UHGV virus genome: UHGV-0174159
DNA from: a virus
Length of the DNA: 10,805 nt
Direction: 5' to 3' (one strand)
The position numbers and the translations under genes were made by a program. Each line of letters starts with the position of its first letter. Within the stretch, counting starts at the first letter, position 1. Below, in pieces: positions 2,944 to 9,027 of this stretch. The notes below the pieces were generated by a model, which saw nothing but the letters and a program-made list of their open reading frames with translations, was not told the origin of the DNA and did not search any database.

Positions 2944-3417
2944 ATGAAATCATATGCTCAATTTTTAAATGAAGCGGTGTTAAATGAAGCATCTAGCACC
3001 GAAATTCAAGCTGTTGCAAAAGCTGCCATTGCCGCGGGTAAATATTCCTATAAAGATGCTTCCGATGAATCACGATTCCAATTTGCTCGCGACATGAAAG
3101 CAGAAGGATTTACGGGGAATGCTGTTAGTATGGCCTGGAAAAGTTTAGTTGCTACTGGCGCTGCTTTTGCAAAGGCTTCGGGTAAACCTGCTCCTAAAGC
3201 AGATCCTAAAGTCGCACAAGAGAAAAATATTGTTAAAGGAATTATCTCCAAATATGAAGCTATCCTTAAAGAGCTTTTAGTAATCAAAACTGAAGGCCAG
3301 AAACTTGCGCGAGCTCATAGTTTCAAAGATAATCCACATGTTCACTCTCTTGAGTATGTTGAAGACATCCAAAAAATTATCAAAGACCGCATTTGGTCTG
3401 CTAAACAAATCAAATAA
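2944..3417 (+). CDS. internal-protein-like capsid protein with N-terminal capsid-targeting sequence (157 aa)
   Basis: N-terminus MKSYAQFLNE|AVLNE|A resembles the T4 internal-protein CTS (MKTYQEFIAE) with L-x-E prohead-protease motifs; SD AGGA upstream; bracketed by two near-identical terminators. Confidence 0.7.
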   Translation: MKSYAQFLNEAVLNEASSTEIQAVAKAAIAAGKYSYKDASDESRFQFARDMKAEGFTGNAVSMAWKSLVATGAAFAKASGKPAPKADPKVAQEKNIVKGIISKYEAILKELLVIKTEGQKLARAHSFKDNPHVHSLEYVEDIQKIIKDRIWSAKQIK

Positions 3418-3424
3418 CATTCTT

Positions 3425-3452
3425 AGCCCTAGCCGAAAGGTTGGGGCTTTTT
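3425..3452 (+). terminator. rho-independent terminator, near-identical copy of the 2870-2897 terminator
   Basis: AGCCCTAGCC-GAAA-GGTTGGGGCT followed by TTTTT, immediately after the stop at 3415-3417. Confidence 0.8.
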
Positions 3453-3585
3453 GGTATCTAGGCCTTTCCAGGCCTCTCTAGACATCATTTAGTTTCTACC
3501 CTTTATAATATATTATCCTACCTTTTAATTTCCTCTCCCTGCCCTAGAATTCCCCAAAACTTTTTAAAAATTTTTTCACAAAACT

Positions 3586-3631
3586 GTTTACATCCCTGTT
3601 CTTCCGTGGTACTATATCAATATCAACTACT
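3586..3631 (+). promoter_or_regulatory. T4 early-type promoter cassette, copy 2
   Basis: GTTTAC 3586-3591, TACTAT 3610-3615 (18-nt spacer), ATCAACTACT 3622-3631; same geometry as copies 1 and 3. Confidence 0.6.
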
Positions 3632-3658
3632 GATACAGAAAACAACTTGGAGAACGAA

Positions 3659-3922
3659 ATGGATAATTACGGCGAACTGTTCAACTTCTTTATGAAATGT
3701 GTTTCAGAAGATTTCGGTCGTACAGTGAATGATATTAAAGTTATCGGTCCTGATCATCCGATGTTTGAAACCTATGCAGTAATGGGTAATGAAGACGGTC
3801 AGTGGTATACTGTAAAGGTTGTGATTAATATGTTCACGGCAGAAGGTTATGTTAAACTGTCTTCTAAAGTTTACCATGATAACGACGAAATCGCAGAAGA
3901 ATATTTCAATAATATGAAATAA
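3659..3922 (+). CDS. hypothetical protein (87 aa)
   Basis: ORF-track ORF 3647-3922 starts at a TTG; ATG at 3659 lies 6 nt after GGAG (3649-3652). Confidence 0.6.
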   Translation: MDNYGELFNFFMKCVSEDFGRTVNDIKVIGPDHPMFETYAVMGNEDGQWYTVKVVINMFTAEGYVKLSSKVYHDNDEIAEEYFNNMK

Positions 3923-3958
3923 GTTTACACAGGCTCATGATTGAGATATTATGAGCCT
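3923..3958 (+). promoter_or_regulatory. promoter-early stem-loop (PeSL-like): GTTTAC fused to the upstream stop, -10-like sequence in a hairpin loop
   Basis: TAA-GTTTAC (3923-3928); 8-bp inverted repeat AGGCTCAT (3931-3938) / ATGAGCCT (3951-3958) encloses TATTAT (3947-3952), 18 nt from the -35. Confidence 0.55.
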
Positions 3959-3978
3959 ATAACTTTGAGGAGAACATT

Positions 3979-4311
3979 ATGAAACGCAACTTTAGCAAAG
4001 CTTTTTGTAATAGAAATAATTATCCTGAAGAGCTTTTTGAATCTAAGGACTTTAAAGAGTTTAACGAACGTTCTCAAAACATGCCTGTACAATGGGTGTT
4101 AGATTATGCCAAACGTATCTTTGAAGGTGTACGTTGGTTCAGTCCTGATGATGAAGCCCCATATTTTCAAAGGGCATGGTCTATAGTCAATCAAGCTTAT
4201 ATTGATGCTTTAGAAAATATTAATATTATGGATGACGATGCTTTGTTAATCATCGATGAGTCTATTAATAGTAGTATCGATAAATTTATTGATGAATTGG
4301 ACGAAGAATAA
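3979..4311 (+). CDS. hypothetical protein with acidic C-terminus (110 aa)
   Basis: ATG preceded by GAGGAG; ORF track; flanked on both sides by PeSL-like elements. Confidence 0.65.
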   Translation: MKRNFSKAFCNRNNYPEELFESKDFKEFNERSQNMPVQWVLDYAKRIFEGVRWFSPDDEAPYFQRAWSIVNQAYIDALENINIMDDDALLIIDESINSSIDKFIDELDEE

Positions 4312-4348
4312 GTTTACAAACTCTTGGGAGTAGAGTATAATACTCCCA
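4312..4348 (+). promoter_or_regulatory. promoter-early stem-loop (PeSL-like) with perfect TATAAT in the loop
   Basis: TAA-GTTTAC (4312-4317); 8-bp inverted repeat TGGGAGTA (4325-4332) / TACTCCCA (4341-4348); TATAAT at 4336-4341, 18 nt from the -35. Confidence 0.55.
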
Positions 4349-4383
4349 CGGATTTTAAATCTTAATTAACTTAAGGAAATACT

Positions 4384-7266: not shown

Positions 7267-7269
7267 TTT

Positions 7270-7289
7270 ATAAATACCTTCTATAAATA
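7270..7289 (+). promoter_or_regulatory. two T4 late-promoter motifs (TATAAATA at 7270-7277 and 7282-7289) upstream of e
   Basis: Exact matches to the T4 late -10 consensus TATAAATA, 14-26 nt upstream of the e start codon. Confidence 0.7.
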
Positions 7290-7302
7290 CTTAGGAGGTA
7301 TT
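7273..7302 (+). promoter_or_regulatory. SD-sequestering hairpin for lysozyme translation control
   Basis: AATACCTTCTA (7273-7283) pairs with TAGGAGGTATT (7292-7302) over 11 bp (one G-U), burying the SD 1 nt before the ATG; the loop holds the late-promoter motif, the arrangement described for T4 gene e. Confidence 0.7.
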
Positions 7303-7791
7303 ATGAATATATTTGAAATGTTACGTATAGATGAAGGTCTTAGACTTAAAATCTATAAAGACACCGAAGGCTATTACACTATTGGCATTGGTCATTTGCT
7401 TACCAAAAGTCCATCACTTAGTGTTGCCAAATCTGAATTAGATAAAGCTATTGGACGTAATTGCAATGGTGACATTAACATAGATGAGGCTGAAAAACTC
7501 TTCAATCAGGATGTTGATGCTGCTGTTCGCGGAATTCTGAGAAATGCTAAATTAAAACCAGTTTATGATTCTCTTGATGCTGTTCGCCGCTGCGCATTGA
7601 TTAATATGGTTTTCCAAATGGGAGAAACCGGCGTGGCAGGATTTACTAATTCTTTACGTATGCTCCAACAAAAACGCTGGGATGAAGCAGCAGTAAATCT
7701 AGCCCAATCTAAATGGTATCGTCAGACACCTAATCGCGCGAAACGCGTAATCTCAACATTTAAAACAGGAACTTGGAAAGCGTATATATGA
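7303..7791 (+). CDS. e: endolysin, T4 lysozyme (muramidase)
   Basis: Translation [37 protein letters not shown]… is near-identical to T4 lysozyme as I recall it; catalytic Glu11, Asp20 and Thr26 are present; 162 aa. Confidence 0.97.
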
Positions 7792-8069
7792 AAACATATA
7801 GTGAATTTTTATCAGAATCTATTCTTAACGAAGCTACTGACACATTTGCAACTAAGCTAGGTGCAGCTTTGGTTGAAGCTGAAAGTCTATTAGCACGTAT
7901 TTCTGAACTTGCTAGTAAGATAGATACTCGCAAATTTGAACGTACCAGCGATATCGTTAAGCTTGAAGCCTTGTTGCGTATGTGCGATAAACCAGAAGAA
8001 ATCGCTAAGAACGGCTCGCTAATGAAACAACGTCTTGAAAAATATATTTCAGGCGCTTCAGAAAAATAG
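7788..8069 (+). CDS. internal-protein-like capsid protein with CTS (93 aa)
   Basis: ATG at 7788 overlaps the lysozyme stop (ATGA); N-terminus [10 protein letters not shown]|SILNE|A matches the internal-protein CTS with L-x-E motifs. ORF-track start 7773 is a TTG. Confidence 0.75.
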
Positions 8070-8070
8070 T

Positions 8071-8116
8071 GTTTACTTCCTCCAAGGACTTTGATACTAT
8101 ACATTCATCAACTACT
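8071..8116 (+). promoter_or_regulatory. T4 early-type promoter cassette, copy 3, upstream of denV
   Basis: GTTTAC 8071-8076 (2 nt after the TAG stop), TACTAT 8095-8100, ATCAACTACT 8107-8116. Confidence 0.6.
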
Positions 8117-8124
8117 TGGAGGAA
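8077..8124 (+). promoter_or_regulatory. 10-bp inverted repeat able to sequester the denV SD, with the promoter -10 in its loop
   Basis: TTCCTCCAAG (8077-8086) is the exact reverse complement of CTTGGAGGAA (8115-8124), which contains the denV SD GGAGG; the 28-nt loop carries TACTAT and the predicted start region. Confidence 0.5.
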
Positions 8125-8127
8125 ATT

Positions 8128-8544
8128 ATGACTCGTATCAATTTAACACTTGTTTCTGAACTGACCGACCAACATCTTATGGCTGAGTATCGTGAATTGC
8201 CGCGTGTTTTTGGTATAGTTCGTAAACATGTGGCAAATGGTAAGCGGGTTAAAGATTTTAAAATATCTTCCGAGTTTATTTTAGGCTCTGGTCATGTTAC
8301 GTTCTTTTACGATAAGTTAGAATTTTTGCGAAAGCGTCAATCAGACATTATAACGGAATGCTTAAAACGTGGGTTTAGTATAAAAGATACTGAAGTTCCT
8401 GACATCAGCGATATTCCAGCAGAATGGAAAAATGATTATAATCCATGCAAATCAGCTATTAAATTGAGTCAACAACGACTCGATGAAAAAATTTTAATGA
8501 AGCCACACTGGTACAAGTATTACGGCAAAAATATTTACATTTAA
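8128..8544 (+). CDS. denV: endonuclease V, pyrimidine-dimer DNA glycosylase/AP lyase
   Basis: Translation [29 protein letters not shown]… closely matches T4 endonuclease V as recalled; N-terminal Thr2 and Glu23 conserved; 138 aa. ORF-track start 8116 is a TTG. Confidence 0.95.
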
Positions 8545-8553
8545 AGGAAACAT

Positions 8554-9027
8554 ATGAAAACATATCAAGAATTTATCACTGAAGCAGCTATTAATTCTCA
8601 AATTATTGCTGAATCTTTTACTGATCTTTTGAAATTTAAAAAAGGTCAAAAAATCACTGCTGTATTGGATGATGGTACAGAAGTTGAGATGGATGTACAG
8701 GGATATAATTATGCAGTAGATGGAAAACTGTATAATAAATCCCATGCTAAATTTGATTCATTTGACGACTTTGTTAATACAGTTGAAGATGAAAAAACTC
8801 GTAGATCAATTTCAACTGGTGATGCTAAGGTTCTTATGGCACACGGTCATGAACGTATTCGCGCTAAACAGAATAAAATGGGTGAAGATAATTTCGCATT
8901 AGTTGGTTATCAATCTGGTAAACAAACTTATGGCTATCAGCGTACTGCTACAATGTATAATAAAAATGGTAAAATTGCCTTTGTAAATAGTAAAGGTTCT
9001 ATTCAGTACGTTAAATCGTTCAAATAA
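8554..9027 (+). CDS. internal-protein-like capsid protein with CTS (157 aa)
   Basis: N-terminus MKTYQEFITE|AAINSQIIAE|S is almost the canonical T4 CTS MKTYQEFIAE; AAGGA 6 nt upstream. Confidence 0.75.
   Translation: MKTYQEFITEAAINSQIIAESFTDLLKFKKGQKITAVLDDGTEVEMDVQGYNYAVDGKLYNKSHAKFDSFDDFVNTVEDEKTRRSISTGDAKVLMAHGHERIRAKQNKMGEDNFALVGYQSGKQTYGYQRTATMYNKNGKIAFVNSKGSIQYVKSFK

Follow-up and report, generated by a model that had tools for sequence, protein, structure and literature searches.

The window analysed here is a stretch of 10,805 nucleotides from the virus genome UHGV-0174159. It holds three open reading frames (ORFs), at 2944, 7788 and 8554, whose products all begin with a leader that resembles the capsid-targeting sequence (CTS) of the internal proteins (Ips, or IPs) of T4-like phages. 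The three genes are:

2944-3417, plus strand: candidate Ip gene of the RB32ORF132c / phrog_2280 family, 157 amino acids; leader residues 1-15 (nucleotides 2944-2988), predicted mature part 142 amino acids with an isoelectric point (pI) of 9.6
7788-8069, plus strand: Ip5-like internal head protein, 93 amino acids; leader residues 1-15, predicted mature part 78 amino acids, pI 8.1
8554-9027, plus strand: ip4 (ipIV), 157 amino acids, Pfam DUF7412; leader residues 1-20 (nucleotides 8554-8613), predicted mature part 137 amino acids

Compared with hundreds of T4-like phages of Escherichia, Shigella and Yersinia, the window is 93-96% identical in nucleotides over its whole length, with vB_Eco_Geo, Kha5h and slur03 among the matching relatives, and judged by its sequence it is Tequatrovirus DNA. 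We consider it likely that all three ORFs belong to the accessory Ip genes of a T4-like phage, namely Ip4, an Ip5-like gene and an unannotated member of the RB32ORF132c family, and that their products would be injected and most likely act against restriction. What is said below on the function of Ip1-3 and on the detection of two orthologues in virions is taken from the literature; the sequence features, homology, cassettes and distribution come from this analysis.

Capsid-targeting leaders

The N-termini quoted in the initial annotation (MKTYQEFITE for the gene at 8554) were reproduced when the three ORFs were translated; the ORF at 7788 opens further upstream, at a TTG at 7773, and the CTS is obtained from the ATG at 7788. 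The second L/I-x-E site that had been noticed in each gene is also present in all three leaders, with LNE at residues 8-10 and 13-15 in the 2944 product, LSE at 8-10 and LNE at 13-15 in the 7788 product, and ITE at 8-10 and IAE at 18-20 in the 8554 product. Such a site within residues 11-25 is found in just one of 18 other genes of the window. The pattern MK.Y..[FL][LIV].E has only three matches in the six frames of the window, and these are the starts of the three ORFs. In the complete genome of vB_Eco_Geo (167,505 bp, six frames) the strict pattern finds the same three genes and gene 61.1 only, and a loose version adds ipI alone, with zero matches within ORFs. Since the pattern is restricted to ORF starts in both the window and Geo, the leader is highly specific and not a chance match.

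The bodies behind the leaders are a different matter. Pairwise BLAST of the three products shows similarity confined to the first 11-31 residues, and when the first 20 residues are removed there is no significant BLAST similarity among the three bodies or to T4 IPI, IPII and IPIII, which agrees with the earlier claim that the proteins are otherwise unrelated. The predicted mature parts would be about 15.5, 8.6 and 15.5 kDa in the order listed above; they are lysine-rich and basic (pI 9.3 for the 8554 product), and mature T4 IPs compare at pI 9.0-9.7. AlphaFold2 (AF2) models of the 2944 and 8554 products have a short leader helix, then a low-confidence segment with the cleavage sites, and then a folded body. 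If only the first site were cut in the 2944 type and in Ip4, the peptide to be expected is AVLNEASSTEIQAVAK or AAINSQIIAESFTDLLK. The view that 2944, 7788 and 8554 are all CTS-bearing internal-protein genes is supported by these results.

The product of T4 gene 61.1 (the vB_Eco_Geo copy lies at 18833-18997 of the stretch compared) has 54 amino acids and starts with MKTYKEFIKE, which is nearly a perfect CTS and includes an I-x-E site. It is annotated as hypothetical, and the gene is found in 1229 records of T4-like phages, Acinetobacter and Aeromonas phages included.

Ip4 and the Ip5-like gene

The gene at 8554 is, on sequence grounds, Ip4, which has been known and named since the 1990s. Its product matches PF24183 (DUF7412) at 1.3e-95 with 318 bits (cut-off 27), over protein residues 1-157 and profile positions 1-158, and PHROG 3155 'internal virion protein' at 1e-101, and it shares 99.4% identity with ip4/ipIV of T2, PP01 and RB51. 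The AF2 model (pLDDT 77) matches the BFVD entry 'Ip4 [Enterobacteria phage K3]' (UniProt Q38388) with a TM-score of 0.89, and the BFVD search with this model gave nothing besides Ip4 itself. It is the same gene as Ip4 of T2, K3 and RB51, with identity over the full length and no substantive difference; only its position varies, being after denV here and in RB51 and directly after e in T2. Homologues are found in 471 phage records; among them, identity is 60-70% for those from phages of Klebsiella, Salmonella, Serratia and Proteus. In an alignment of 14 sequences M1, K2, F7, E10 and E20 are invariant, and three residues before E20 there is I, L or M in every sequence. The invariance of E10 and E20 fits two conserved sites for the protease. 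An NCBIfam match of Ip4 as 'curli synthesis inhibitor' reached 17 bits against a cut-off of 300 and was discarded as noise, and in a preprint on contingency loci ipIV serves solely as a zero-variation control.

The product of the gene at 7788 matches phrog_3499 'internal head protein' at 1e-46, and copies 100% identical to it are labelled 'internal head protein' in several RefSeq records. Searches of Pfam, NCBIfam and PDB sequences gave nothing significant for this protein. Its next relatives are Ip5 of T2, PP01 and RB51, with about 48% identity over 84 of the 93 residues. It resembles Ip5 of T2, T6, RB51 and PP01 in its length class, its helical character and the leader cleavage motif at residues 13-15, but it is a distinct allele or paralogue that lies in the e-denV locus, where its ATG shares bases with the stop codon of e (ATGA), whereas Ip5 occupies the 57B-tRNA (ipI) locus, in which this phage type retains ipI. 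With such a low identity and another locus, the 7788 product is best called, from its sequence, an Ip5-like paralogue and not Ip5.

The gene at 2944

The product of the gene at 2944 falls in PHROG 2280, which is labelled 'unknown function', and it has no significant match in Pfam, NCBIfam or PDB sequence searches. The family is found in 512 phage records and is called 'hypothetical protein' in every match listed and in almost every named member of its clusters; a single Klebsiella phage homologue has been given the name 'Internal head protein' in UniRef. Members come from T4-like phages of Escherichia, Salmonella, Klebsiella, Yersinia, Serratia and Cronobacter. The name 'RB32ORF132c' was found in no paper. 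In Kha5h (NC_054905.1, 3812 onward) a gene of the 2944 type is present in the DNA with no coding sequence annotated, and in PP01_137 (6038-6601 of the PP01 stretch) the start has been set at an upstream non-ATG codon, by which the leader appears to be internal. The initial annotation had suggested a profile search of the mature part, and for this protein it gave no informative relatives: the mature family, compared with 1.84 billion representatives, found 10 clusters only, all of them proteins of the same family from T4-like phages.

The bodies of distant members are about 40% identical or lower, and two members are detectable by profile search only. The motif M-x-x-[F/Y]-x-x-F-L-x-E is nevertheless present in all members compared, with an E|A/Q/G-S junction behind it at the predicted mature start, and the divergent members start with MLEYSEFLKE, MKFKEFLAE, MLKFNEFLAE, MINFSDFLNE or MKSFSSFLNE. 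The leader of this family is more conserved than its cargo, which speaks for the leader itself being under selection. In the 2944 protein the second site resembles a 5-residue insertion (AVLNE) that duplicates the motif, and members without the insertion have one site. In the AF2 model (pLDDT 76) the leader helix and the low-confidence cleavage segment are followed by a four-helix N-domain, a linker rich in proline and lysine, and a helical C-domain, the latter being swapped for unrelated sequence in Klebsiella and Yersinia members. Foldseek with this model found nothing in the PDB at E<=0.001, the best matches being generic helical bundles. A place in the Ip class, as a new member, is credible for the 2944 gene, which is the sole unrecognised candidate of the three.

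Several phages have frameshifted or truncated alleles of this family, of 93-111 amino acids (proteins P0006, P0009, P0041 and P0058). The break is at or near the A5 run in CAAGAGAAAAATATT (about 3208-3222 of the window) and leaves the leader and the N-domain. These short alleles may have arisen by decay or may be short forms that still function, and the truncation suggests that the N-domain alone is perhaps functional.

Gene order and cassette structure

Gene order was read on the plus strand from the ORFs, from tRNA scanning and from annotated relatives. The left part of the window holds the 3' end of ipI (1-183), trna.4, trna.3, trna.2 and an extra ORF (1124-1639); the middle holds ten tRNAs (1726-2553), the rnaD/rnaC region, ORF 2944-3417, e.8 to e.2 and nudE; and the right part holds e (lysozyme, 7303-7791), ORF 7788-8069, denV (8116-8544), ORF 8554-9027, vs.8, vs.7 and vs.6. 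The same region of T4 reads ipI-trna.4..2-tRNAs-rnaD-rnaC-e.8..e.2-nudE-e-ipIII-ipII-denV-vs.8. The window thus has e-ip(7788)-denV-ip(8554) and a further ip(2944) between rnaC and e.8, where T4 has e-ipIII-ipII-denV and an empty rnaC-e.8 gap, and the comparison confirms that the layout departs from that of T4, as had been claimed. The first element of the window is a fourth Ip gene of the region, missed in the initial annotation:

1-183, plus strand: 3' end of ipI (Ip1), truncated at the window edge; its 60 residues match the C-terminus of T4 IPI without a difference

A full-length ipI is annotated at the corresponding position in Kha5h and Geo.

The following features flank the Ip genes:

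2867-2902, plus strand: direct repeat of 36 nucleotides, left copy, holding the 3' terminator hairpin of rnaC (2870-2893)
2900-2907, plus strand: T4-type late promoter TATAAATA, an exact match 37 nucleotides upstream of the ATG at 2944
3422-3457, plus strand: direct repeat of 36 nucleotides, right copy, with a hairpin at 3425-3448; right end of the 555-bp cassette that is absent from T4
7269-7289, plus strand: two T4 late promoter motifs TATAAATA, exact matches just upstream of the lysozyme gene e
8071-8118, plus strand: early-promoter-like block (GTTTAC, 18 nucleotides, TACTAT, then ATCAACTACT) between the 7788 gene and denV, a putative promoter

Compared with T4, the 2944 gene is a precise insertion of 555 bp directly after rnaC. 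The two repeat copies are 94% identical, and T4 has one, at the position of the left copy; the RB51 record remarks 'flanked by 34 bp imperfect direct repeat' and proposes no function. The left repeat runs into the late promoter, which is followed by a Shine-Dalgarno sequence, AGGAA (2934-2938), and then by the ATG. The two late motifs before e would probably drive the Ip gene at 7788 as well, although for all of the Ip genes the evidence of late expression consists of motif matches at the sequence level. About 50 nucleotides over the ribosome-binding site (RBS) and CTS of the 8554 gene are nearly identical to their counterparts in T4 ipII and ipIII. By repeat search, related copies of the early-promoter-like block (…GATACTAT…ATCAACTACT…) lie at 223-250, 3606-3633 and 8091-8118, where they adjoin the 3' sides of ipI, the 2944 cassette and the 7788 gene and are upstream of trna.4, e.8 and denV, respectively.

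The site between rnaC and e.8 is empty in T4, T2 and T6 and filled here, and on this comparison of sequences it acts as a third Ip site beside the 57B-tRNA and e-denV loci. Two Ip loci with ten Ip ORFs, reportedly shuffled between conserved regulatory blocks, are said to have been described by Repoila et al. 1994 (EMBO J), a study cited in PMC12373910. The anatomy of the cassettes in the window fits this view of exchanged Ip ORFs. The Ip ORFs here are bounded by conserved regulatory DNA able to mediate exchange, like the T-even Ip cassettes and the mobile cassettes of regulatory DNA in T4-type genomes (Arbiol et al. 2010, PMC2839356), but with the 2944 cassette a third locus, rnaC-e.8, is in use, which differs from the two-locus scheme. 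Exchangeable cassettes, with a block of late promoter, RBS and CTS upstream and a terminator or an early-promoter block downstream, would explain both the patchy distribution of these genes and their change of order in comparison with T4.

Proposed packaging and anti-defence function

In T4 the CTS takes the IPs to the prohead core, gp21 cuts after L/I-x-E, and about 1000 mature IPs are kept with the DNA and injected (PMC3012670, PMC9391042). Geo encodes prohead core, prohead assembly and major capsid genes of the T4 type, and these lie outside the window. The packaging, the cleavage positions, the injection and the anti-defence targets of the three proteins we infer by analogy with this pathway. 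They would be made at least partly late in infection and docked into the prohead scaffolding core by the N-terminal CTS of about 10 residues, and the prohead protease gp21 would then cut the leader after the last accessible L/I-x-E, predicted to be E15, E15 and E20. The basic, lysine-rich mature proteins would remain in the head with the DNA, be injected along with it and be active before any phage gene is expressed. Their likeliest role would be that of specific, stoichiometric inhibitors of host nucleases that attack DNA containing glucosyl-hydroxymethylcytosine (glucosyl-hmC), either GmrSD-family type IV enzymes or similar first-line defences.

That injected Ips counter restriction is not a new idea; it is stated in reviews and has been shown for Ip1-3. 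The T-even Ips have been described as diverse defence proteins that share the CTS alone (PMC3012670). For each of Ip1, Ip2 and Ip3 the target is another GmrSD type IV restriction enzyme (PMC12373910): Ip1 inhibits the GmrSD of strain CT596, and Silas et al. 2025 found two further GmrSD systems, very different ones, to be inhibited by Ip2 and Ip3, without cross-protection (PMC12373910). IPIII is needed for infection of ECOR17 and works in the host cytoplasm without the CTS (PMC9391042). The identification of all three genes of the window as internal-protein genes stands, but their novelty as anti-defence effectors had been overstated, as the class is known and both Ip4 and the Ip5-like protein are catalogued.

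The products resemble T4 IPI-III in their CTS (of the MKTYQEFIAE type) ending in L/I-x-E, in their small basic mature forms, in the 57B-tRNA-e-denV neighbourhood with shared upstream RBS/CTS DNA, and in the presumed pathway through the core, gp21 and injection. They differ in having unrelated mature bodies and two L/I-x-E sites per leader instead of the one in T4 IPs, and in their gene order and use of a third locus; Ip1-3, moreover, have defined GmrSD targets. Our best guess, by analogy, is that the three proteins are specific injected inhibitors of first-line defence against glucosyl-hmC DNA.

A number of observations weigh against this reading of the three as injected internal proteins of the Ip class. 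There is no exact late promoter motif directly upstream of ip4, and the nearest signal there resembles an early promoter and lies before denV. N-terminal processing and injection are predictions for all three proteins. No relatives of known function, by sequence or by fold, were found for the mature parts in Pfam, PDB, Foldseek, BFVD, NCBIfam or profile searches, these parts show no resemblance to IPI*, and no similarity of the Ip1, Ip2 or Ip3 type is seen beyond the leader, PDB sequence searches giving no matches. When ip4-10 were tried against five additional active GmrSD systems, no reproducible inhibition was seen (PMC12373910). Liquid chromatography-tandem mass spectrometry of purified virions of the Yersinia phage fD1 lists g140 and g129 as particle-associated (PMC8309999 Table S3), of which g140 is 96.8% identical to the 2944 protein and g129 is Ip4. 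Both are flagged with an upper-case 'PPAP', which we read as detection in both virion preparations, and the neighbours g138 and g139 are unflagged (PMC8309999). The list is however unspecific, with 113 proteins that include DenV, lysozyme e and NudE (PMC8309999), and detection in the virion therefore gives weak support.

This last point bears on the 2944 product in particular, for which the unspecific data set is the sole mass spectrometric evidence of presence in the virion. It could be that this product is no virion protein, that its CTS-like start is a relic of a recombining upstream block and that it acts in the cell late in infection. The gene lies outside the two classical Ip loci, its leader DNA is the most divergent of the three, and the label in nearly all of the 512 records is 'hypothetical protein'. 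T4 gene 61.1 likewise has a CTS-like start, and its product is not known to be packaged. On the other hand, the leader is retained where the bodies have diverged to the detection limit, which speaks for its being selected in its own right, the conserved E|A/Q/G-S junction resembles a cleavage site that has been kept, the gene has its own late promoter, and the fD1 orthologue carries the flag that its two neighbours lack. We think it improbable that the 2944 protein stays out of the virion.

Another way to account for packaged Ips is that their role is structural or physical, as basic counter-ions that aid the condensation, packaging or ejection of DNA and have no specific target in the host. 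The lysine-rich and basic mature parts speak for it, as do the lysines of internal proteins that contact DNA phosphates, with about 1000 IPs embedded in the DNA (PMC3012670), and the lack of reproducible inhibition of the tested GmrSD variants by ip4-10. It would, however, leave the unrelated folded bodies unexplained, as well as the strong conservation of the Ip4 body with its 64 invariant columns and the patchy accessory distribution, and each of the three Ips that have been characterised inhibits a specific enzyme. A counter-ion role without a specific target is in our opinion unlikely.

Given the negative result of ip4-10 against further systems, GmrSD as the target of the three as injected inhibitors of a host defence is an analogy. 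The targets could instead be other modification-dependent nucleases, hmC or glucosyl-hmC glycosylases (Brig-type), RecBCD-like exonucleases or abortive-infection sensors. The same negative result against the additional GmrSD clusters would be expected from this, the bodies are unrelated to Ip1-3, and other defences against the modified DNA that T-even phages carry exist (PMC13160076). Against it stands that all three characterised Ips hit GmrSD-family enzymes, which form an extremely diverse family, that the sampling of GmrSD was small (15 representative systems, 8 of them active), and that nothing in this analysis favours a particular alternative target. We regard targets outside the GmrSD family as a possibility, if a somewhat doubtful one.

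The leader of the 2944 family is absent from the supplements of PMC12373910, and the family is apparently outside the genes tested there. We would tentatively suggest that the 2944 product is an unrecognised injected protein, placed in a third locus that arose by duplication of the rnaC terminator, in which a conserved N-domain is combined with an exchangeable C-domain and which neutralises a defence beyond those met by Ip1-3; we put this forward as a conjecture.

Significance

As injected proteins precede the expression of phage genes, they decide whether a T4-like phage survives the first-line nucleases of the host, and the Ip repertoire is relevant both to the prediction of host range and to the choice of phages for therapy. 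The RB32ORF132c family, labelled hypothetical in nearly all its records, shows at the sequence level every feature typical of an Ip and belongs in Ip screens. The third cassette site, with a copy of the duplicated terminator on either side, is a modest addition, and the annotations of Kha5h and PP01 conceal the gene. The current picture of the Ip class is unchanged by these findings, and no new kind of system is involved.

Other features of the window

The ten tRNA genes are those for Gln, Leu, Gly, Pro, Ser, Thr, Met/Ile-CAU, Tyr, Asn and Arg, two more than T4 has, and segB is absent. They are followed at 2554-2866 by the stable RNAs rnaD and rnaC, according to the annotation of Kha5h; this region matches no Rfam family. 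The extra ORF between trna.2 and the tRNA cluster encodes 171 amino acids and is of the RB32ORF134c type, which is present in T2 and not in T4 at the same position. At the right end of the window, vs.6 (10054-10416) encodes a GrcA-like autonomous glycyl-radical cofactor, with the same annotation in T4 and the relatives.

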